DNA from: Candidatus Multivorans sp.
Lineage (GTDB): Bacteria; Acidobacteriota; Thermoanaerobaculia; Multivoradales; Multivoraceae
NCBI GenBank assembly: GCA_965247095.1
Contig: OZ251997.1
Coordinates: 4,032,001-4,096,000 of the forward strand
DNA length: 64,000 bases
Reading direction: 5' to 3'
Shown: one piece after another, positions 1-6,957 of the stretch
How positions within the stretch are numbered: position 1 is the first letter of the stretch
Layout of the letters: each line of letters starts with the position of its first letter
Notes under the pieces: model-generated
What the model was told of the DNA's origin: nothing
Databases searched by the model: none
The model's input: the letters and a program-made list of their open reading frames with translations, nothing else
Position numbers and translations under genes: made by a program

Positions 1-864
1 CGTCTCGAGCGCACTGATCGCCTGCTGGTAGCCCTCTGCTGCGTCCTCGTCGAGCGCCGAGGTCCTGACTTCGCGGATCGTGCCGACCTTCAGACCCTCG
101 ATGCCTTCTTCGATCGATTCGAGGTAGTCCTCCACCGGGAGTTCGCTGCAGGTCGAATCGCGGGGGTCGGGGCCGGCGATGGCGCCGAGCGCCAGCGCGG
201 CGTCACGTACCGTGCGGGTGAGCGGTCCGATCTGGTCGAGAGACGAAGCGAAGGCGACCAGGCCGTAGCGGGAAACGCGGCCGTAGGTTGGCTTGACGCC
301 CACGACGCCGCAGAAGGCGGCCGGTTGCCGGATCGAGCCCCCGGTATCGGAGCCCAGGGCGAGCGGCACCTCGGTGGCCGCGACCGCGGCTGCCGAACCG
401 CCGCTCGAACCGCCGGGCGCCATGTCCAGATTCCAGGGATTGCAGGTGACGGCCAGCCCTGAGTTCTCGCACGAAGAACCCATCGCGAACTCGTCCATGT
501 TCACGCGGCCGATGGGCACTGCGTCGGCAGCCAGCAGGCGCTCGACAGCACCGGCGGTGTAGGGCGCGCGGTAGCCGGAGAGAATCCGGGAGCCGCAGTT
601 CAGTTCGTGTCCGGCCAGCGAGAGGTTGTCCTTGAGCGCAGTCGGGAGGCCGGCCAGAGTGCCGAGTGATTCGCCGGAATCCCTGCGCCGGTCGATGTCG
701 GTTGCGCGTTCGGCCGCCGGTTCCCGCCAGAGTTCGAGGAACGCTCCCACCGAAGCGTCGACCTCGTCGATGCGGGCGAATGCCTGCTCGACCGTCTCGA
801 CCGCTGTTCGTTCGCCCGAACGGACGGCGGCTGCCAGCGCTTCGGCGGTCACGGTCGGCCTCAC
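1..864 (-). CDS. gatA: Asp/Glu-tRNA amidotransferase subunit A (3' end outside the window)
   Basis: Manual translation from a GTG overlapping the gatC stop gives ...LAGLPTALKDN... and the amidase signature (PGGSSGGSAAAVAA, ALGSDTGGSIRQPAAFCGVVGVKPTYGRVSRYGL); follows gatC. Confidence 0.93.
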   Translation of the reverse strand, partial: MRPTVTAEALAAAVRSGERTAVETVEQAFARIDEVDASVGAFLELWREPAAERATDIDRRRDSGESLGTLAGLPTALKDNLSLAGHELNCGSRILSGYRAPYTAGAVERLLAADAVPIGRVNMDEFAMGSSCENSGLAVTCNPWNLDMAPGGSSGGSAAAVAATEVPLALGSDTGGSIRQPAAFCGVVGVKPTYGRVSRYGLVAFASSLDQIGPLTRTVRDAALALGAIAGPDPRDSTCSELPVEDYLESIEEGIEGLKVGTIREVRTSALDEDAAEGYQQAISALET

Positions 865-1166
865 TCTGCGCCGCCGGGCGTCGCCTTGACCTGGGGCACC
901 AGAAGGAAGCGGTCGAGGGATGCGGGTGCGTTGTCCAGAAAGTCGTCGAGGAGCGGTCGGCCTCCCGCCGGCACGTCGTTGGCGGCGGCATCCTGTTCCG
1001 GGTCGGTGTCGTCCGACGGTGCGGCGCCCGCGTCGAACGTACGAAGCTGGTCGATGTAATCGACGATCTCGGAGAGCTGGGACGCGAACTTCGCTTCCTC
1101 ACCGGCCGAGAGTTGTAGCCTCGCCAGTTCGGCGATCCGCCGAAGCTCCTCGACATCCAGAGACAC
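861..1166 (-). CDS. gatC: Asp/Glu-tRNA amidotransferase subunit C
   Basis: 101 aa; 'ELRRIAELARLQLS...IVDYIDQL...FLDNAP...FLLVPQV' GatC pattern; directly upstream of gatA. Confidence 0.92.
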   Translation of the reverse strand: MSLDVEELRRIAELARLQLSAGEEAKFASQLSEIVDYIDQLRTFDAGAAPSDDTDPEQDAAANDVPAGGRPLLDDFLDNAPASLDRFLLVPQVKATPGGAE

Positions 1167-1347
1167 TTCGCTATAAGTCTAGCATTCCCCGCGATTGCGC
1201 GGCAGAAACCGGGTGCTGCTGCCCTTCTGGCCGGATGCGGCGCAAAACGCCGGCCCTCGGGAGTTTTACCGCGTTGCGGGGAGCCAAGGCACGGAGCGCA
1301 CGCTTGCATGGAACAAACCCCTCGTCCTGGCCGGCCCTTCGTGCCTA

Positions 1348-1372
1348 ATGCGGGCGAGACGCCCGCGTTCCC
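1348..1372. repeat. REP-like palindrome, family A (GGGAACGCGGGCGTCTCGCCCGCAT, reverse orientation)
   Basis: ATGCGGGCGAGACGCCCGCGTTCCC is the exact reverse complement of 43787-43811; related copies at 41704-41727 and 43736-43762. Confidence 0.8.
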
Positions 1373-1408
1373 CAGGGCGGACCGAAGTAGCGACCACGCT
1401 CTTACGGT

Positions 1409-1460
1409 GTTCCCTGCGCGACAGCGCAGCGATACCGCTGTGGGTACTTGCATGGAACAA
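1409..1460. repeat. 52-bp palindromic direct repeat, copy 1 (left of IS110)
   Basis: GTTCCCTGCGCGACAGCGCAGCGATACCGCTGTGGGTACTTGCATGGAACAA, identical to 3052-3103; internal IRs GTTCCCTGC/GCATGGAAC and CAGCG/CGCTG. Confidence 0.95.
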
Positions 1461-1500
1461 ACTGATGCTGGTTCCTTTTGGGTGAAGCGGATTCCGGGAT

Positions 1501-2820
1501 TCAGGCGGCTTGTTCAACGGCCACGAGCTTCAGGTTGAGGCGTCTGGCCTGTCGCTGGAGGTTCTTGAGTTGGCGTTCGCGCCGGACGGCCTCCATTTCG
1601 GCGAGGTCGCGTTCGACGTACTCTTCGCCGTGCGTGAGCATGGCGAAGATCATGCGGCCGAGCTGGTGGGCGGTTGCCTTGACCGCCCTCGCGGTGTCCA
1701 TGCGGTGCATTCGGCGTCGGTGGGATGCGCCGATGGCGGTCTTGCTGTTGCGGGCGGTGGTTGCGGCCATTCGCAGCGCCTGGCCGACCCGGTTGGTGTG
1801 TTGTCTGGGCTTGCCTTTGAGGCGTTTGTCGCCGCTGATGTTGGTCGGCGGAGCCAGACACAGCCACGAGCAGAAGTTGCCCTGCGAGGGAAACCGGGAC
1901 AGGTCCGGGCCGATCTCAGCGGCAAACGTCAGCGCCGTTTCGACGCCAATGGTCGGGATGGCGACCAGGTCCACTCCGAGCATGCGGTGCAGCCGCTGGC
2001 GCAGGGCGTGCTCGCGGACCTTCGAGTCCGGCGGCGAAGCCTCCCCTGCGCCGTCCTCAGCCAGCTTGTCGAGTTCGGCGTCGATGCGCTCCTCGCACAT
2101 CTCGATCTGGCCCTGCAGCATGTCGTGGCGCGCCAGCGCCTGCCTGAGGGCGAACAGATGCTCGTCGCGCCAATTGCCCTCGAGACTCGCTGCGATCGTC
2201 GCCGCGCTCGCCTTGCACCGGCCGTCACGGTGGCGGGCCAGCACCTCGCCGTCCCGCTCGCCGGCGACGATCGCGCGCACGATGAGCTGGCCGGTCTTGC
2301 CCATGATGTCGCTGAGCACGTTGTCCAACTGCACGTTCATCTGCAGGAGCGCCTTCTGAACGTGCTGCACCGAACGGCTGCGGTCGCGGATCAACTGCCC
2401 GCGCTGACGCGTATAGGAACGCAGCGGGCACAGCGCGTCCGGCGCACGAAACGCGCTCCGCAGCAACCCGTAGCTCATCAACTGCCGGATCCACTGACAG
2501 TCCAACACGTCGCTCTTGCGACCGCTCACCTGCTTCGTCGCCTTCGGATTCACCAGGTAGACCTCGAAACCCGCACGGTCGAGCACCTCGAACACCGGGA
2601 TCCAGTACACGCCCGTGGACTCCAACGCCACCTGCCGCACGCCGTGCGCCTCAAGCCACGACGCCATCGCCTCAAGATCGCGTGTGAACGACCCGAAGCT
2701 GCACACCGGGCGCTCGAAACGCGACGGGTCCACCGCCACGTAGTGCTTGCGCTTGCCCACGTCGATCCCCGCACAATCCGGGTGAACGACCTCCAGACTC
2801 TCCGCCTTCCTGCTCGCCAT
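1501..2820 (-). CDS. IS110-family transposase/recombinase (DEDD RuvC-like + Transposase_20)
   Basis: GIDVGK, ALESTG and KSDVLD supply the DEDD residues; C-terminal 'SWLCLAPPTNISG' carries the catalytic Ser; AGGAGG 8 nt before the ATG at 2820. Confidence 0.96.
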   Translation of the reverse strand: MASRKAESLEVVHPDCAGIDVGKRKHYVAVDPSRFERPVCSFGSFTRDLEAMASWLEAHGVRQVALESTGVYWIPVFEVLDRAGFEVYLVNPKATKQVSGRKSDVLDCQWIRQLMSYGLLRSAFRAPDALCPLRSYTRQRGQLIRDRSRSVQHVQKALLQMNVQLDNVLSDIMGKTGQLIVRAIVAGERDGEVLARHRDGRCKASAATIAASLEGNWRDEHLFALRQALARHDMLQGQIEMCEERIDAELDKLAEDGAGEASPPDSKVREHALRQRLHRMLGVDLVAIPTIGVETALTFAAEIGPDLSRFPSQGNFCSWLCLAPPTNISGDKRLKGKPRQHTNRVGQALRMAATTARNSKTAIGASHRRRMHRMDTARAVKATAHQLGRMIFAMLTHGEEYVERDLAEMEAVRRERQLKNLQRQARRLNLKLVAVEQAA

Positions 2821-2847
2821 CTCCAGCACCTCCTGTACGATTCAAAT

Positions 2848-3010
2848 GGTCGCGCTGGACAGAGACCGCGGCGGAAACGTCACTCTTGCATACGGGGTCG
2901 CGGCAAAAGCTGCGCCGCCAGCGTCAGAACGCCGATCACGGTCCGGGCCAAACTTGCATTGCGGGTGCGAACACACCAGTGCTTCGACGGCCTCGCTGCC
3001 CAGCGCGACC
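2848..3010 (-). ncRNA. Candidate bridge RNA in the IS110 left end
   Basis: Perfect 11-bp IR GGTCGCGCTGG (2848-2858) / CCAGCGCGACC (3000-3010) closes the region; two similar internal motifs (minus strand ACCCGCAATGCAAG and ACCCCGTATGCAAG); TTCTGC-N17-TAGAGT promoter-like element just upstream. Location matches known IS110 bridge RNAs. Confidence 0.6.
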
Positions 3011-3051
3011 CAACTCTACGCATCCTGCAACGACCGCAGAATCCACCACCC

Positions 3052-3103
3052 GTTCCCTGCGCGACAGCGCAGCGATACCGCTGTGGGTACTTGCATGGAA
3101 CAA
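3052..3103. repeat. 52-bp palindromic direct repeat, copy 2 (right of IS110)
   Basis: Identical to 1409-1460; followed after 5 nt by a degenerate partial third copy GTTCCCTGTGCGTCAGCGCGGCG (3109-3131). Confidence 0.95.
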
Positions 3104-3151
3104 TCCCTGTTCCCTGTGCGTCAGCGCGGCGCGGACGCCGCGACTCGACTC

Positions 3152-5227
3152 CTAGGCCTGCGTCAGGCTGGCGGCTTCGAGGTTCTCGATCGCCTGCAGG
3201 GTGAAAGTCTCGCCATCCATCTCGACCTCGGCGCCGGGCTCGGAGCCGAGCAGCTTGACGGCGAGGTCGGACTCGTACGAGATGATTCCGCGCTCGGGTG
3301 CGCTTTCCCAGGGGCCGAGGATGGCCAGAGTGCGCTGTTCGCCCCTTTCCGACTCGAAGACCGCCCGGTTGCCGATGCGGAGCTTGTCGCAGGCCGCGGC
3401 GGCGATGTCAATCGGCGTGGAGCGCTGCAGATCCTGCTGCAGTTGCGTGGCTATCGAAGTCAGATACTCGTGGCGTTGACGGGCCGCCTTGTACTCGAAG
3501 TTCTCGCGCAGGTCGCCGAGTGCGCGCGCTTCTTCGATCGCTCTGCGATTGGCTGGCAGCTCCTTCCCGGCCAGCTCCCGCAGTCTCTCGCGCTTTTCTG
3601 CGATTGAGGCCGGCAGGGCGTAGAGATCGCTGTGGTCGGTGTCCTGGTCGGCCACCAGATCGGGGAACTTCAGGTGCAGTGCCGCGAGCAGAGGCTCACG
3701 CCGGTAGTCCTCGAGCGCCGCGTGACGGATCGAGACGTCGGCTTGCCGGGCCTCTTCCAGGGTCAGTTCGGGCAGCAGCTTCGGGACCGTGCCGCCGGAG
3801 TCGAAGAGGGCCTTGAGGCGGAGTCGGAACGGGGCGAAGGCCTCGTGCCTCAGGGAGTGGATCAACAGGTTGAGGAGGCGGCTCTGCCGCCCGGCGCGGA
3901 GTGCCGGCTCGGCCGCGGCGCCCTCCGCGAGCCAGGTGAAGGCCGCTGGCGTGCGATGCGGCTGAACTTGGGCGCGCGCGGCGCAGCGGCGCAGCAGATC
4001 CTCGTCGATCAGGCCGGCGATCGTGCCGATCGCCTTCGTGTCGGTCTCCAGGAGGAAACGCTTCTCAAGCACTTCGCGCCAGTCGCTGCGACAGTCGGGC
4101 AGGAGGGTGTATGCCTGCTCGCGTGGACCGCGCTGCTCGATCGACGAGAAGAAGTCCAACGGATCCTCCAGGTTGGCCAGGAGTTCCTCCGCGGGCCATG
4201 AGGGCTCGGCGCCGAACCGCTCCAGTGCGCAGCGAATCTCGAACGCGAGCGCCGGCTGCTTACCGGTCAGGCGCTGGCCCAGGTCGTCCAGGAAGGCCGC
4301 CATCCGATCCCGCAGCTCCTGCGACTGATTCGCCGCTCGCCGCAGCAGGGGGACCTTGGCGCGGTTCGGCGCCCGCCTGAACTCCTGCCAGAGCGAACTC
4401 TCGGCGTCGGTCGCTTCGACCCAACGATAGGTCTGCCGGGATCCGCCGGACGACAGGACCTGCGCCTGCTTCCGCGCGCTGGTCCACCAACTCGACCAGC
4501 GTCGCTCGGGGATGATGCCGACCACGATGGCCCGCACCTCGGCCCCCGTCAGCGGGCGGTCGTAACTCTTGAGCGTCTGCTCAAGCAGCTTTGGCGGCTT
4601 CAACGTCGCCAGTTGCTCCGGTTCTTCGAGCTTCCGTCGCAGCACATGCTTCGGGGGCAGCAGGGTGAGCATCTTGCCGGCGGCCCGGAAGCCGACCGCG
4701 ACTCCCTTCGCCTTCTCGAGGTCGACCTTGAAGGTCTGCAGCGGCATGTTCACCTGGGCGATGCGGCCGACTCCTCGGGCCGTCATCTCGACGATGTCGC
4801 CGCGCTCGAATGCCATCAGGTTGCGGAGCCGGTCCACCTTGTCCCAGAGCTTGAGCGTCTCCTGCCGTCCCCGGTCCAGGTCCAGTTCGTGGAGCAACTC
4901 GTTCAGATCGGACTCGCGGTCCCGGTAGAGCTCGTGCAGAGTCTCGAGAACGGTCTCATAGACCTGGCCGCTGCGCAGATACCTGCCGCCGGCGCCGCGG
5001 ATCAGGTCCAGGCGGTCCGCCCACAGGCCGCGCTCCTGCAGTTGGTCGTCGAGCAGTTCGAGCAGTGTGCCTACACGCTCCGCTTCGCCGAGTCGAACCA
5101 GCCCACTGGTGATGGCGAGGAAGGCGTCGACCGCGATCGCTCCCTCGACCGCGGCCAGCCACTCTGCCTCGACTGCGTCGATGTCACCGCTGGCGAGGCT
5201 GTCTTGAATGCGTTGCGGGATCCTCAT
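3152..5227 (-). CDS. Long GreA/GreB-family transcription elongation factor (~690 aa, large N-terminal extension)
   Basis: C-terminus 'ELPANRRAIEEARALGDLRENFEYKAAR...ILGPWES...ISYES' is the Gre domain; start re-called at MRIPQR (5227). Confidence 0.88.
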   Translation of the reverse strand: MRIPQRIQDSLASGDIDAVEAEWLAAVEGAIAVDAFLAITSGLVRLGEAERVGTLLELLDDQLQERGLWADRLDLIRGAGGRYLRSGQVYETVLETLHELYRDRESDLNELLHELDLDRGRQETLKLWDKVDRLRNLMAFERGDIVEMTARGVGRIAQVNMPLQTFKVDLEKAKGVAVGFRAAGKMLTLLPPKHVLRRKLEEPEQLATLKPPKLLEQTLKSYDRPLTGAEVRAIVVGIIPERRWSSWWTSARKQAQVLSSGGSRQTYRWVEATDAESSLWQEFRRAPNRAKVPLLRRAANQSQELRDRMAAFLDDLGQRLTGKQPALAFEIRCALERFGAEPSWPAEELLANLEDPLDFFSSIEQRGPREQAYTLLPDCRSDWREVLEKRFLLETDTKAIGTIAGLIDEDLLRRCAARAQVQPHRTPAAFTWLAEGAAAEPALRAGRQSRLLNLLIHSLRHEAFAPFRLRLKALFDSGGTVPKLLPELTLEEARQADVSIRHAALEDYRREPLLAALHLKFPDLVADQDTDHSDLYALPASIAEKRERLRELAGKELPANRRAIEEARALGDLRENFEYKAARQRHEYLTSIATQLQQDLQRSTPIDIAAAACDKLRIGNRAVFESERGEQRTLAILGPWESAPERGIISYESDLAVKLLGSEPGAEVEMDGETFTLQAIENLEAASLTQA

Positions 5228-5380
5228 GCGGTCGCGGTCGCGGCGGTGCAAGCGGCGCGTGTGCGGATTGATGATGGTATCAAGCCGGGAAGGAGTTGGG
5301 GACGGCCTCGAAGCGGTGCGAGACTCGGAGTTGGCCGAGTCCCCACCGCACCAGGAGCTTGGGCCGCCGAACCCAGTCCG

Positions 5381-6957
5381 AGCGTAGTCCAATCCTGAAA
5401 TGAGCGTGAACGGGACCGTCATGGAGAGTCGAGTCGGGTCGGTCTCGGGGTAGTTCTGGAGCGGCAGACGGTTCTGCACCGTCTGCCGCCTGCGGTAGCG
5501 CCCGCTGCGAGGCCGCGGCGGGTTACTGGCGTTGTGTTCCGGCCTGGGCCGGTGGTGGTGGGCGGTGTATGGCATCGGGCTGCGCGGTCTGCGGTTCAGG
5601 CGCTCCGGCGCCGGTGGGGATCGGACTCCCGGTCGATGAGTTCAAAGAGTCTGGCACGAGCCAGCTTGAGGGCGCTCGCGGCGTCGAGGTCGCTCGTGGC
5701 GCCGGCCTGGTCTTGGAGGGCGGCGATGGTGACGCCGGGCCTGAGGTACCGCTCCGCGTCCGGCAGGGACTTGAGCTTCTCGAACGGCGTCATGGTGTCC
5801 TGGTAGCGGTAGCGTTTCCTGGTGCGGCCCTTCCTGTCGGTGACCTCGGTGGGAAACAGGCACGGGCGATGGAAGTTGAGGAAGGGGGTGAGCACATCGC
5901 GTGCGAAGACGTTGATCTCGCGGGCGAAGAGCTTGGGGATGTGCCGGTATCCGAACTGGCGCCGGATCACGTTGCCGTTCTTGCTCTCGACCAGGGCGTT
6001 GTCGTTGGTGTGCCGGCTGCGGGACTTGGTGAACTCGGGGACGTGCAGTTGGTTGAGCATCTCGGCGACCTTGCGGTTGATGTACTCGGAGCCGTTGTCG
6101 GCGTGGAAGCCCAGCACCTTGAAGGGGCAGGACTCGATGAGCTCCTTGAGCACCGGCACGAGACACCGTTGGGAGATGGCCCGTACCGTCGCCACGTGCT
6201 CCCACTGCAACACCTCGTCCACGAGGTTGATGTGGTACACGCCCTTCTCGCCGTCTTTGTCCCCCTGATGCACCGTGTCCACCCGCAGGTAGCCCGGCTT
6301 CCCCTCCGGCTGGGGCTTGCGTCGTTCCCCGATCCCGACCGCGGTCGACCGCGTCTTCTTGAACGTCGTCCGGCGCCGCTGGTAGGTGGTCGACTTGCGC
6401 AGGTTGTAGAACTGGCCGTTCGAGATCACAGCCAGACGCTCGAAGCGCTCGTCGCCGTACACCTCGAACTGGCGCCGCATCACCGCCCGCGTGCTGTGAC
6501 CGCACATCTGGCCCAGTGCCGCGTCGACCTCGGCGAGAAGGCCGATGTCGGCCTTCGTGTAACGCCGCCCGAATGCGTGAGGCGGCGCACCGCGGCGGTC
6601 CTCGATGCGGCCCGTCTCCCGGTGCTGCCGGATCAGCCGCGTCAACTGCGACTCGGACTTCCCGGTCATCTTCATCAGGTAGCGCCGAATCATGCCCTTG
6701 TCGCGCCTCACAAGCGCCCGGTAGCGGAACCTGACCAGCGTCTCACGGATGAACTCGTACGTCGATCCGCGGTCCACCACCACGAAGTCCACCGCCTCGT
6801 TGCCGGCCACGAAACTGCGGACCTCACAAAGAGTCTGAAGTCGGCCTGTCTGGAGCGTCACGATCATCCTCCGATGATCCCCGATACCGGCGCTTCACGC
6901 TCACTTCTCGCTGGATTCACGCACCCCGCTCACGCTCACTTCTCGCTGGACAGCTCT
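5381..6957 (-). mobile_element. IS element with rve/DDE transposase (unclassified, ISNCY-like); 5-bp TSD GTCCG
   Basis: GTCCG at 5376-5380 and 6958-6962; imperfect terminal IRs AGCGTAGTCCAATCCTGAAATGAGCGTGA vs rc AGAGCTGTCCAGCGAGAAGTGAGCGTGA; 21-bp repeat TCACGCTCACTTCTCGCTGGA at 6895-6915 and 6930-6950. Confidence 0.85.
5596..6867 (-). CDS. DDE integrase-core (rve) transposase
   Basis: 'PGYLRVDTVHQGD', 'FHADNGSEYIN', 'NDNALVESKNG' form the D-D-E triad; 423 aa intact. Confidence 0.92.
   Translation of the reverse strand: MIVTLQTGRLQTLCEVRSFVAGNEAVDFVVVDRGSTYEFIRETLVRFRYRALVRRDKGMIRRYLMKMTGKSESQLTRLIRQHRETGRIEDRRGAPPHAFGRRYTKADIGLLAEVDAALGQMCGHSTRAVMRRQFEVYGDERFERLAVISNGQFYNLRKSTTYQRRRTTFKKTRSTAVGIGERRKPQPEGKPGYLRVDTVHQGDKDGEKGVYHINLVDEVLQWEHVATVRAISQRCLVPVLKELIESCPFKVLGFHADNGSEYINRKVAEMLNQLHVPEFTKSRSRHTNDNALVESKNGNVIRRQFGYRHIPKLFAREINVFARDVLTPFLNFHRPCLFPTEVTDRKGRTRKRYRYQDTMTPFEKLKSLPDAERYLRPGVTIAALQDQAGATSDLDAASALKLARARLFELIDRESDPHRRRSA

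Follow-up and report, generated by a model that had tools for sequence, protein, structure and literature searches.

A predicted bridge-RNA IS110 element of the ISPpu9 type, apparently stacked among mini-elements built from its own two ends

A 1,643-bp IS110-family insertion sequence (IS) occupies positions 1449–3091 of the window, the 64,000-nt stretch of DNA analysed here; it belongs to the ISPpu9 type, and its core reads AG on the transposase strand. The locus as a whole is very probably best explained as a bridge-RNA IS110 element that lies among mini-elements and whose own joined ends make up the 52-mer found on both sides of it. As the first-pass annotation had stated, a repeat search of the window recovered identical 52-bp copies at 1409–1460 and 3052–3103 (100% identity, 1,643 nt spacing); they form exactly one two-copy family, 52 nt in length. 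An exact repeat of 52 nt is far beyond chance. The partial copies reported at about 1303–1320 and 3109–3131 were likewise found, at 1303–1320 (18 nt, 89–94% identity to 1447–1464 and 3090–3107) and 3108–3131 (24 nt, 88% identity to 1408–1431). The 52-mer was also called a palindrome, a term that holds loosely: it does fold into a hairpin (-18.3 kcal/mol), and the hairpin is imperfect.

The duplication had been flagged as a potential assembly artefact. Contigs from four sequencing runs of one sample, probably the source sample, contain the stretch. An independent short-read assembly has a 101-nt contig covering 1434–1534 and a second contig covering 2931–3081, and in the short-read contigs the depth of the IS is about twice that of its flanks, the expectation for two copies, which argues against an artefact. 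Loose contig ends at 1303 and 1463 correspond to other genomic copies of the units. These contigs showed neither a circle junction nor an empty site, a result that weighs neither way on excision. BLAST of the element and of the 52-mer, a check proposed with the first description, returned a second IS copy (98.9% identity over 1,575 nt) and nine exact 52-mers in the 4.6-Mb genome. A CRISPR-like array of hairpin repeat plus “spacer” was considered and rejected, since the “spacers” do not differ from unit to unit or from locus to locus.

The assignment to the IS110 recombinases was borne out by Pfam and NCBIfam matches. The transposase/recombinase ORF occupies 1501–2829 on the minus strand (442 aa from the GTG at 2829); the likelier start is the ATG at 2818–2820, behind GGAGG. 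Its product matches DEDD_Tnp_IS110 (PF01548, E 4.2e-25, residues 20–164) and Transposase_20 (PF02371, E 2.6e-12, residues 290–363), so that by profile matches it has the DEDD (RuvC-like) N-terminal and IS116/IS110/IS902 C-terminal domains of the family. The NCBIfam equivalog NF033542, “IS110 family RNA-guided transposase”, scored 259 bits against a cut-off of 140. The left end of about 270 nt (2821–3089) and the right end of 52 nt (1449–1500) give the long-left/short-right layout of the IS110 group. Tblastn against plasmids returned 510 records, with identity under 60% in every case except one; they were labelled only “IS110 family transposase”, with no named relative among them. A scan of 1250–3200 for consensus promoters gave 0 sites, and therefore neither a junction promoter nor an internal promoter can be claimed. 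A -10-like TAGAGT lies about 80 nt inside the left end.

The limits of the element were set by copy boundaries in relatives. On the transposase strand these copies part immediately ahead of ...CTAGG-AG and immediately beyond ...GTTCCATGCA-AG, and the core is therefore AG (CT on the plus strand of the window, at 1447–1448 and 3090–3091), not the GT proposed earlier. In one related genome (G024) 14/14 copies of an 84%-identical IS are alike up to ...CTAGGAG on the left and ...GTTCCATGCAAG on the right and are divergent beyond. In another (OY762279) 13/13 copies diverge after GTTCCATGCAAG, the left flank being CTAGGAG in 12 of the 13 and CAAGGAG in one. All families examined retain the right terminus at their end, and immediately past it the copies differ. 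Classical terminal inverted repeats and long target duplications are absent; among the 13–14 copies per genome in relatives the junctions have only AG in common, in agreement with the 2-nt core and lack of long duplication described at first. A Pseudomonas relative (L069) with 57% amino acid identity obeys the same junction rules and the guide rules given below. A third IS110-family gene in the present genome (C1:1495556...) lacks the guide motifs as well as the terminus.

With relatives' boundaries and the covariation of the guides taken together, the full-length element covers 1449–3089 on the minus strand (1,641 nt; 1,643 with one core), in place of the earlier limits of 1463–3049. The two copies in this genome share the same 14 nt on the left, and for that reason the left limit here rests on relatives and the guide. 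The right terminus at 1449–1460 reads TTGTTCCATGCA on the transposase strand and forms the donor half-site that the second guide loop matches. Beyond it lies the core at 1447–1448, the crossover site in the element model. A right-end spacer of 40 nt (1461–1500, “variant A”) separates the stop codon from the terminus. It is similar to the spacer in the 84%-identical IS, and in the second local copy it has been replaced, in a manner left unexplained, by unrelated sequence of the same length. The first 38 nt on the transposase strand (3052–3089) form the left-end hairpin unit, which is followed outward by the core at 3090–3091. Left-end hairpin unit, core and right terminus together are the 52-mer.

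A conserved structured RNA with two internal loops is predicted beside the recombinase gene. RNAalifold places it at 2848–3010 on the minus strand, where an outer stem (2998–3010 with 2848–2860) encloses the putative target-binding and donor-binding loops. For 21 distinct sequences the model has 44 pairs, 17 of them with compensatory changes, and 97.3% of cells are paired. Shuffled alignments gave 7.6 ± 1.7 compensatory pairs and slid controls 1–6, and the observed RNA values were reached by 0/500 shuffles for four of five measures and by 2/500 for the fifth. An Rfam 15 scan of positions 1–6000 at E up to 1 gave 0 matches, which shows only that there is no curated model fitting this clade.

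Three guide segments could be assigned within the predicted loops. The 5' segment of loop 1 (GUCGAAGCACU, 2978–2988) is complementary in relatives to the right flank of the insertion, and its 3' segment (CAAUGCAAG, 2953–2961) runs in the same sense as CCATGCA-AG, the left flank, itself the right terminus of a neighbouring element. The 3' segment of loop 2 (UAUGCAAG, 2885–2892) has the same sense as the element's own right terminus plus core. Both 3' segments end in the AG core. By sequence comparison across the clade, the loop-1 3' segment thus corresponds to the sequence adjoining the element on its left and the loop-2 3' segment to its own right terminus, and in relatives the loop-1 5' segment appears complementary to the right flank.

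The 19 guide sets used to examine these correspondences fall into seven guide classes. An exact match to the locus's own loop-1 7-mer lies 85–120 nt upstream of the loop in 50/55 loci, and a match with at most one mismatch in 53/55; foreign guide classes match there in 2/330 tests. The loop-2 3' segment equals the right terminus in 51/53 loci of five classes, a count in which only two positions were free because the search pattern for the terminus fixed 10 of 12. A register scan of the loop-1 5' segment against the right flank gave a single best register (3.51 of 6, against 1.2–2.2 elsewhere). At least five of seven positions match at 11/14 sites in G024 and at 5/13 in OY762279. Both copies in the present genome match at 3/7, and the predicted right flank CTTCGAC occurs in neither, so that insertion here would need tolerance of a half-match between right flank and loop-1 5' segment. 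For the donor side at the left-end hairpin, no guide was found in 16 representatives, just scattered 6-mers at inconsistent positions.

The main model of the first-pass annotation had the recombinase recognise the hairpin loop between host tandem units, with an element at 1463–3049, a GT (AC) core and the 52-mers as host DNA. With 1463–3049 removed, a GCATGGAAC...GTTCCCTGC hairpin indeed remains that closely resembles the uninterrupted junction at 3092–3117, and REP-targeting IS110 elements are described (Tobes and Pareja 2006, as cited in PMC11208160; ISPpu9/ISPpu10 papers). Nevertheless, the element ends elsewhere. The supposed host units, that is the 38-nt “REP unit” and the TTGTTCCATGCAAG motif, move with every copy into the 13–14 different flanks per genome in relatives, and the guides covary with junctions 38 nt further out on one side and 12–14 nt on the other. 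Around GT, the left-end RNA has no 6-mer in common, in either sense, with the proposed target GGAACGG-GT-TTGTT or donor AGCATCA-GT-GGTGG, and the second IS copy lacks GT at the corresponding right junction. The two adjacent 52-mers that this model places before the insertion occur nowhere else in the genome. It is already largely refuted, and the chance that it is correct is minimal. Boundaries, guides and array arrangements instead support the alternative offered in the same annotation, namely that the 52-mer is carried at the circle junction and that the element integrated into a copy of it.

The IS is flanked by two miniatures, both on the minus strand. Mini-element M1 (1305–1446; 142 nt, 144 with core) consists of a right terminus (1305–1316), a 92-nt cargo (1317–1408) containing a host REP-like hairpin, and a left-end hairpin unit (1409–1446) identical to that of the IS. 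It meets the unique flank (...GGAGCGCACG) at a core at 1303–1304 (CT on the plus strand, AG on the transposase strand), as judged from copy boundaries in relatives. A BLAST comparison of M1 with the IS aligned only the 38-nt left-end unit and a 14-nt right terminus, both at 100%. The core of its cargo (1321–1408, 88 nt) has five identical genomic copies with differing flanks. Mini-element M2 (3092–3148; 57 nt, 59 with core) consists of a right terminus (3092–3103), a 5-nt link and a diverged left-end hairpin unit (3109–3148). Its 57-nt body has 31 BLAST matches in the genome, 18 of them across all 57 nt. After M2 come a core at 3149–3150 and the target half-site, which reads CCTAG (on the transposase strand, CTAGG); together, at 3149–3155, they overlap the stop codon (3152–3154) of a GreA-like ORF. 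AG thus stands at both ends of the element on the transposase strand, with crossover there in the element model, and non-autonomous elements with the same ends occur in tandem and alone (M1 cargo core, M2).

Twenty M2 copies stand directly after CTAGGAG in varied flanks. Among 133 CTAGGAG sites in the genome, M2 follows at 20 and the REP-type flank NNTGCGC at 33, and unoccupied sites of the form CTAGGAG followed by CNTGCGC hold one AG. Relatives carry the loop-1 guide CUAGG-AG, the target being CTAGG-AG followed by CNTGCGC at the edge of a host REP, and the REP-related target suggested at first was in this respect confirmed. True host REPs (CTAGGAG followed by CTTGCGCGG.AGAAC... hairpins) are targets, not units.

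A further explanation is that the 52-mer, M1 and M2 are host REPs moved by a RAYT or by homologous recombination, or else an assembly artefact; it would also take in an IS family that had merely acquired REP-like ends, or homologous recombination between arrays that placed the IS. One Y1_Tnp (RAYT/IS200-like) match is present in the genome (G000:C1:2898256-2898492), other REPs are abundant in it, and M2-like units occur in 16 of the 31 genomes of the genus, including one (G016) where the full IS was not found. Against this, M1 and M2 have in common with the IS exactly its end-defining parts and nothing else, they are bounded by the same AG cores, and the 20 M2 copies occupy the CTAGG-AG site that relatives' guide specifies. 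The independent contigs and the doubled depth reported above speak against the artefact. This explanation is considered very unlikely.

The arrangement of the array could be compared with other places. Twelve tandem junctions of right terminus to left end are present in the genome. The pre-insertion arrangement expected if the 52-mer is the joined ends (start–X–52mer–terminal unit) was found at two other genomic places, and the arrangement required for the second IS copy likewise at two other places. In another genus, locus L053 has the same architecture, with CTAGG-AG, a mini-element, AG and then an IS with the AAUGCAAG guide. In the orthologous spacer between gatC and the GreA-like gene, the whole array is absent in 13/13 same-genus loci, with gatC adjoining the gene in 12, and an intermediate allele with one or two 52-mers was found in none of these 13 relatives. 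The array-free spacer indicates only that the whole array is an insertion. None of 76 related loci holds a full-length IS with an M2-type left end, and for this reason the parent of M2 was not found. The full target predicted from both loop-1 segments has 17 genomic places within two mismatches, of which 0 are occupied by the IS.

By analogy with IS621 and ISPpu9 biology, the following sequence of events is proposed. The element encodes a DEDD recombinase and, upstream of it, a predicted bridge RNA of about 160 nt with two guide loops. On leaving, the IS would form a circle joined through right terminus, AG and left-end hairpin, a junction that is exactly the 52-mer, and recombinase and RNA would recombine this junction with a target at AG. 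The AUGCA-AG guide of this genome equals the right terminus of kin elements, so that the IS would land immediately behind a resident element. It may thus have inserted between the 59-bp and 144-bp miniatures, each composed of left-end hairpin and right terminus, in an array at a REP-side CTAGG-AG site, and both IS junctions would thereby recreate the 52-mer. The “REP-like tandem repeat” would then be a head-to-tail stack of elements with cores in between. With the IS head-to-tail between two miniature copies of its ends, the 52-bp repeats would therefore be its own joined ends and not a cut host palindrome.

The same limits are also compatible with an insertion that loop 1 did not direct, in which donor–donor or half-match recombination placed the IS and the AUGCAAG segment is incidental or non-functional. 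The target of the first copy, the M2–M1 junction, shares an identical stretch of 52 nt with the circle junction, and the donor loop alone could for that reason recognise it. The loop-1 5' segment fits the flank of neither copy. For IS621 there are reports of half-match recombination and of donor-only recombination (10.64898/2026.08.31.748434), and donor matches confined to one side are described at the boundaries of repeat units in expanded IS110 loci (10.64898/2026.08.14.744561). Nevertheless, the AUGCA-type guide always accompanies insertion behind a right terminus (in this genome, G000, and at L053, L056, L058, L059 and L070). At L056 and L070 the targeted terminus is CATGAA-AG and the element's own CATGCG-AG, a target that the donor loop would not pick, and the target of the second local copy is only half donor-like. 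An insertion without direction by loop 1 is therefore regarded as rather unlikely.

Under the preferred reading, insertion guided by loop 1, the origin of the AUGCA-AG guide may itself be an insertion. At one locus (L091) a mini-element of about 85 nt lies inside the CTAGG guide of a bridge-RNA gene, and at another (L042) a whole IS directly adjoins a second copy, precisely at that copy's guide. It is tentatively suggested, at somewhat less than even confidence, that guide-encoding DNA is a half-target and that a sibling insertion redirects the element to its kin's right ends, leading to integron-like stacking. The insertion would replace the REP-directed CUAGG-AG guide by the sibling's right terminus AUGCA-AG. 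Such a switch may have occurred in at least two genera, as represented by this genome and by L053, whose sisters L047 and L054 keep CUAGG. Full IS and 59–144-bp mini-elements would then be stacked head-to-tail with a complete donor site at each internal junction, and any run of stacked units could exit as a circle. If this is true, part of the annotated REP/BIME repeats in these genomes is still-mobile IS110 debris.

For annotation, it is easy to place the limits of hairpin-ended IS110 elements 12–40 nt inside the true ones and then to take joined ends and miniature derivatives for host REPs, as with the 57-nt unit here and its 31 matches in one genome. For work on bridge recombinases, the clade offers a natural series of guide variants with seven target classes, five donor classes and known insertion sites. 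The series includes guides aimed at the element's own end, insertions at half-matches to the RNA, and a donor side that lacks a visible guide and adjoins a conserved hairpin. It bears on specificity, half-match recombination and locus expansion in nature. The basic picture of IS110 biology is unchanged.

The units resemble the REP/BIME and REPIN families moved by RAYTs in being short GC-rich hairpins that are intergenic, just after stop codons and often clustered, but they differ in being bounded by IS cores and made of the two ends of an IS. As in the subterminal inverted repeats of the IS1111 group, GTTCC...GGAAC arms flank the core at the circle junction, whereas the RNA upstream of the gene, the long left end and the short right end follow the IS110-group layout, as these groups are described in PMC11208160.

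With IS621, as presented in PMC11208160 and PMC11208158, the element shares the DEDD recombinase, a left-end RNA with two internal loops, a 2-nt core and a REP-associated target. The loops are also alike, with a 5' segment of 9–11 nt, a stem-loop, a 3' segment ending in AG and then a U-rich linker. The core of IS621 is CT on the transposase strand, in contrast to AG here. When the opposite strand is read, the 5' and 3' segments come to stand where IS621 has its LTG and RTG, and we therefore infer that gene and RNA are inverted relative to the polarity of the site. Unlike the RNA depicted in those two accounts, the present one has an outer stem enclosing both loops and no visible 5' stem-loop, and a search of 16 representatives found nothing corresponding to the 8-nt LDG.

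Expanded IS110 loci likewise have repeat units stacked beside the transposase, with boundaries that retain one donor half-site (10.64898/2026.08.14.744561), and insertion at sites matching half the RNA is common to that work and the present locus (10.64898/2026.08.14.744561; 10.64898/2026.08.31.748434). The main text of 10.64898/2026.08.14.744561 does not use the term “target-binding loop”. Where the pattern set out in these two surveys is statistical, the units here can be read as discrete mini-elements with cores, and a guide specifying the right end of kin is identified.

The account of ISPpu9 in PMC12288879 describes AG at both ends, A/B boxes, a tandem MITE with the same ends and several types of circle. 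The element resembles ISPpu9 of Pseudomonas putida KT2440 in the terminal AGs with crossover there, in a left-end box whose inverted repeat resembles the target palindrome, and in insertion at AG within REP/BIME sequence (PMC12288879). The promoter appears native and not junction-formed, as in ISPpu9, being represented here just by the -10-like TAGAGT, with no scored consensus promoter. Like MITEPpu9, the mini-elements are short and non-autonomous, carry the same end boxes and occur in tandem behind the IS and alone elsewhere; at 59 and 144 bp they are much smaller (PMC12288879). The likeness is one of description, the nearest Pseudomonas locus being 57% identical. A loop-1 guide equal to the right terminus, a point not met in the portion of the ISPpu9 account drawn on here (PMC12288879), would by that alone explain the tandem arrangement. 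The closest known system is ISPpu9 with MITEPpu9, and the element is a fresh member of that known sort.

The window corresponds to G000:C1:4032001-4096000 in the single-contig, 4.6-Mb genome G000. Identical 52-mers noted in the first-pass annotation were present at 1409-1460 and 3052-3103, with a spacing of 1,643 nt, as were partial copies at 1303-1320 and 3108-3131. Between the two 52-mers sits a 442-aa ORF on the minus strand (1501-2829). It has both IS110-family transposase domains, in agreement with the recombinase assignment made there, and scored 259 bits against the NCBIfam model "IS110 family RNA-guided transposase" (cut-off 140). The array is bordered on the left by gatC (861-1166) and on the right by the stop codon (3152-3154) of a long GreA-like ORF. 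At the orthologous gatC/GreA-like region, the array was wholly missing from all 13 same-genus loci read, and gatC adjoins the GreA-like gene in 12 of them. The GreA-like ORF (3152-5575, minus strand, 807 aa) is itself conserved in each of the 31 genomes searched within the genus. GreA/GreB N- and C-terminal domains are found in it only within the last 150 residues (657-788), and the ~650 residues ahead of them have no Pfam match. At its end, where the stop codon adjoins the array, the final three codons are not shared with the nearest relatives.

The ends of the element were read from relatives, using G024, a genome of the same genus with many copies of an 84%-identical IS, and 76 related loci obtained by a transposase scan of species-representative genomes (Ca. 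Multivorans, Ca. Foliamicus, Azotimanducaceae and other Pseudomonadales MAGs). At the left junction in G024 the DNA differs up to ...CTAGGAG, after which the copies agree across a 38-nt hairpin unit and on into the left end (14/14 copies read). At the right junction identity runs to ...GTTCCATGCAAG, with divergence directly after it (14/14). A second genome, OY762279, showed the same right-hand divergence in 13/13 copies, and its left junction was CTAGGAG in 12 and CAAGGAG in one. The left and right junctions have AG alone in common. Hence the TTGTTCCATGCA motif, like the hairpin unit, is element sequence, and AG on the transposase strand (CT on the window + strand) forms the core.

These boundaries were transferred to the window and checked letter by letter. 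On the + strand, the flank extends to 1302 and is followed by a CT core (1303-4), the miniature derivative M1 (1305-1446), CT (1447-8), the IS (1449-3089), CT (3090-1), a second miniature derivative, M2 (3092-3148), CT (3149-50) and a CCTAG half-site (3151-5). Each 52-mer consists of the left-end hairpin unit, core and right terminus, which is the sequence expected of a circle junction of the IS. The first-pass annotation, in its main reading, had instead placed a GT core in the hairpin loop of a host repeat. This could not be upheld: the second genomic copy of the IS has no GT at the position required, and the proposed target and donor words around GT have no 6-mer counterpart in the left-end RNA.

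This second copy (C1:1057357-1058931) is the one further copy of 1461-3051 in G000, with 98.9% identity over 1,575 nt. The two copies are nearly identical from the left end through the stop codon, and the 40 nt from there to TTGTTCCATGCAAG have the same length and unrelated sequence. The variant spacer region of copy 2 (C1:1057339-1057380), ahead of the conserved 14-nt terminus, is also found in a 94-95% identical, left-truncated G024 copy (L002/L021), in which unrelated DNA takes the place of the left end and, with it, the RNA gene. G000 also has a third IS110-family transposase gene (C1:1495556-1496530), of a different subtype and with no guide or terminus motifs of the IS clade. The 52-mer occurs exactly nine times in the genome. 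The remaining ones sit in intergenic arrays that combine a small set of modules. These are a start (CTTGCATGGAACAA), an 88-nt X or 45-nt Y module, the 52-mer, and a terminal unit with ...CTCCTAG at its end.

In M2 (57 nt), 5 nt separate a right terminus from a diverged left-end hairpin. BLAST with M2 gave 31 hits in G000, 18 of them full-length, with differing flanks, and M2-M2 tandems with a spacing of 59 nt were seen in two cases. The sequence common to M1 (142 nt) and the IS is limited to the 38-nt left-end unit and the 14-nt terminus, each at 100%. The cargo of M1 includes a widespread host REP-like hairpin, and the 88-nt core of this cargo occurs five times in identical form. Among 53 right-terminus-like 11-mers, 12 are immediately followed by the left-end unit, forming head-to-tail junctions. 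M2-like units are present in 16/31 genomes of the genus, including G016, where 10 matches were found and the search for the full IS was empty. A mobiliser of M2 was absent from G000 and from the 76 related loci.

Across the families, the left ends could be aligned between a -10-like box and the start codon. RNAalifold analysis of 21 distinct sequences predicted 44 pairs, 17 with compensatory changes, and 97.3% of cells were paired on the alignment. Shuffles gave 7.6 ± 1.7 compensatory pairs and none of 500 reached 17; sliding the partners by 1-3 columns reduced the number to 1-6. In the predicted fold, an outer stem encloses a first loop, which is closed by GGCC/GGCC and contains a stem-loop, and a second domain, which has stems of its own and likewise contains a stem-loop.

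The unpaired segments differ among families and covary with the junctions. The 3' segment of loop 1, the predicted target loop, is CAAUGCAAG in the window IS, ACUAGGAG in G024, and UCCAGGAG, AAUUGUAG, CAUGAAAG, AAUGCGAG or AAUGAGAG in other families. In 50/55 loci the left junction, lying 85-120 nt upstream, has exactly this 7-mer (exceptions: L041, L052, L071, L077 and L083), and in 53/55 it has it at ≤1 mismatch, compared with 2/330 control tests using 7-mers of foreign guide classes. The loop-1 5' segment is complementary to the right flank in a single register (mean 3.51 of 6 versus 1.2-2.2 in six others), with at least 5 of 7 matching at 11/14 sites in G024 and 5/13 in OY762279. In loop 2, the predicted donor loop, the 3' segment equals the right terminus plus core in 51/53 loci, the terminus pattern fixing all but two positions; five classes occur at these positions (CA, CG, AA, GG and GA). 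No guide for the hairpin side of the donor was found in 16 representative elements. A Pseudomonas element (L069, 57% identity) follows the same three guide rules inside a classical Pseudomonas REP. In G000, a small cluster at C1:3965881-3966020 contains three CATGCG-AG-type right-terminus-like motifs in both orientations adjoining an M2 copy, which suggests past activity of a second terminus class in G000.

CTAGGAG targets are occupied by the relatives' IS and by M2. G000 has 133 CTAGGAG sites: the M2 left-end unit comes next at 20, NNTGCGC at 33 and other sequence at 80. NNTGCGC opens a host REP hairpin (CTTGCGCGG.AGAAC...) and is the flank specified by the relatives' 5' guide. The 33 sites thus represent numerous unoccupied targets. 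The host REP family begins CTAGGAG-C(T/G)TGCGC(G/C)G.AGAAC..., with a hairpin of ~45 nt and 33 copies without an element (for example C1:215013, 345739 and 3305989, and window flank 1180-1302). A second REP type (GGGAACGCGGGCATCCTGCCCGC) often comes next, and one copy lies inside module X of M1; module X has >90 partial matches in G000. The single Y1_Tnp (RAYT/IS200-like) match, at C1:2898256-2898492, is a possible mobiliser for these host REPs.

The loop-1 3' segment of the G000 IS is AUGCA-AG, the right terminus itself, and not CUAGG-AG. Copy 1 lies directly behind the right terminus of M2 and copy 2 behind that of a Y-type mini-element. Other lineages with AUG..AG guides are likewise placed behind a right terminus (L053, L056, L058, L059 and L070). 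In L053, from another genus, the order is CTAGG-AG, mini-element, AG, IS, and its sisters L047 and L054 retain the CUAGG guide. The guide of L056 and L070 targets the terminus CATGAA-AG, and their own terminus is CATGCG-AG. The 5' guide of the G000 IS predicts a CTTCGAC flank, which both copies match at 3 of 7 positions only, so insertion would need a half-match. This appears plausible, half-match recombination being reported for IS621 (10.64898/2026.08.31.748434). For copy 1, whose target is identical to the circle junction, the donor loop might instead have sufficed for recognition, which is a serious alternative.

DNA that encodes a CUAGG-AG guide is identical in sequence to the left half of the target. 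In L091 (OY762824, about 905-1080), a ~85-nt mini-element-like insert lies exactly inside the CTAGG guide of the bridge-RNA gene. Its hairpin is left-end-like and its terminus is ...CTTCCATGCA-AG, and the segment ahead of UUUGGCC is changed to CCAUGCAAG. In L042 (OY762279, 2515-2860), a complete IS with ...GTTCCATGCA-AG as its end directly precedes the RNA gene of a second copy, which starts just past its own guide; 180 nt are identical and the match continues into the transposase gene. Here guide-coding DNA seems to have been used as a target or recombination site. From these two cases we infer a guide switch, in which a sibling would insert into CUAGG-AG guide DNA and a subsequent deletion would leave a guide like that of G000.

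In IS621 (PMC11208160, PMC11208158), the 9-nt LTG is followed by a stem-loop and then by an RTG that ends in AG, with a U-rich linker after it. The LTG/RTG layout fits the window IS when the site is read on the CT-core strand; relative to the site, gene and RNA would be inverted compared with IS621. A 2026 preprint (10.64898/2026.08.14.744561) describes non-coding units repeated in tandem next to IS110 transposases; the unit boundaries show one-sided donor matches. A target guide equal to the right terminus was not found in the accessible ISPpu9, IS621 and IS110-repeat literature. Within these sources, ISPpu9 is the closest described system. Each of its ends has AG, and its left box contains an inverted repeat resembling the palindrome of its target; a MITE with ISPpu9 boxes is found both behind the IS and solitary, there are several circle types, and there is no junction promoter (PMC12288879). 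Given these features of ISPpu9, IS621 and the preprint repeats, the window IS belongs to a kind of system that is already known.
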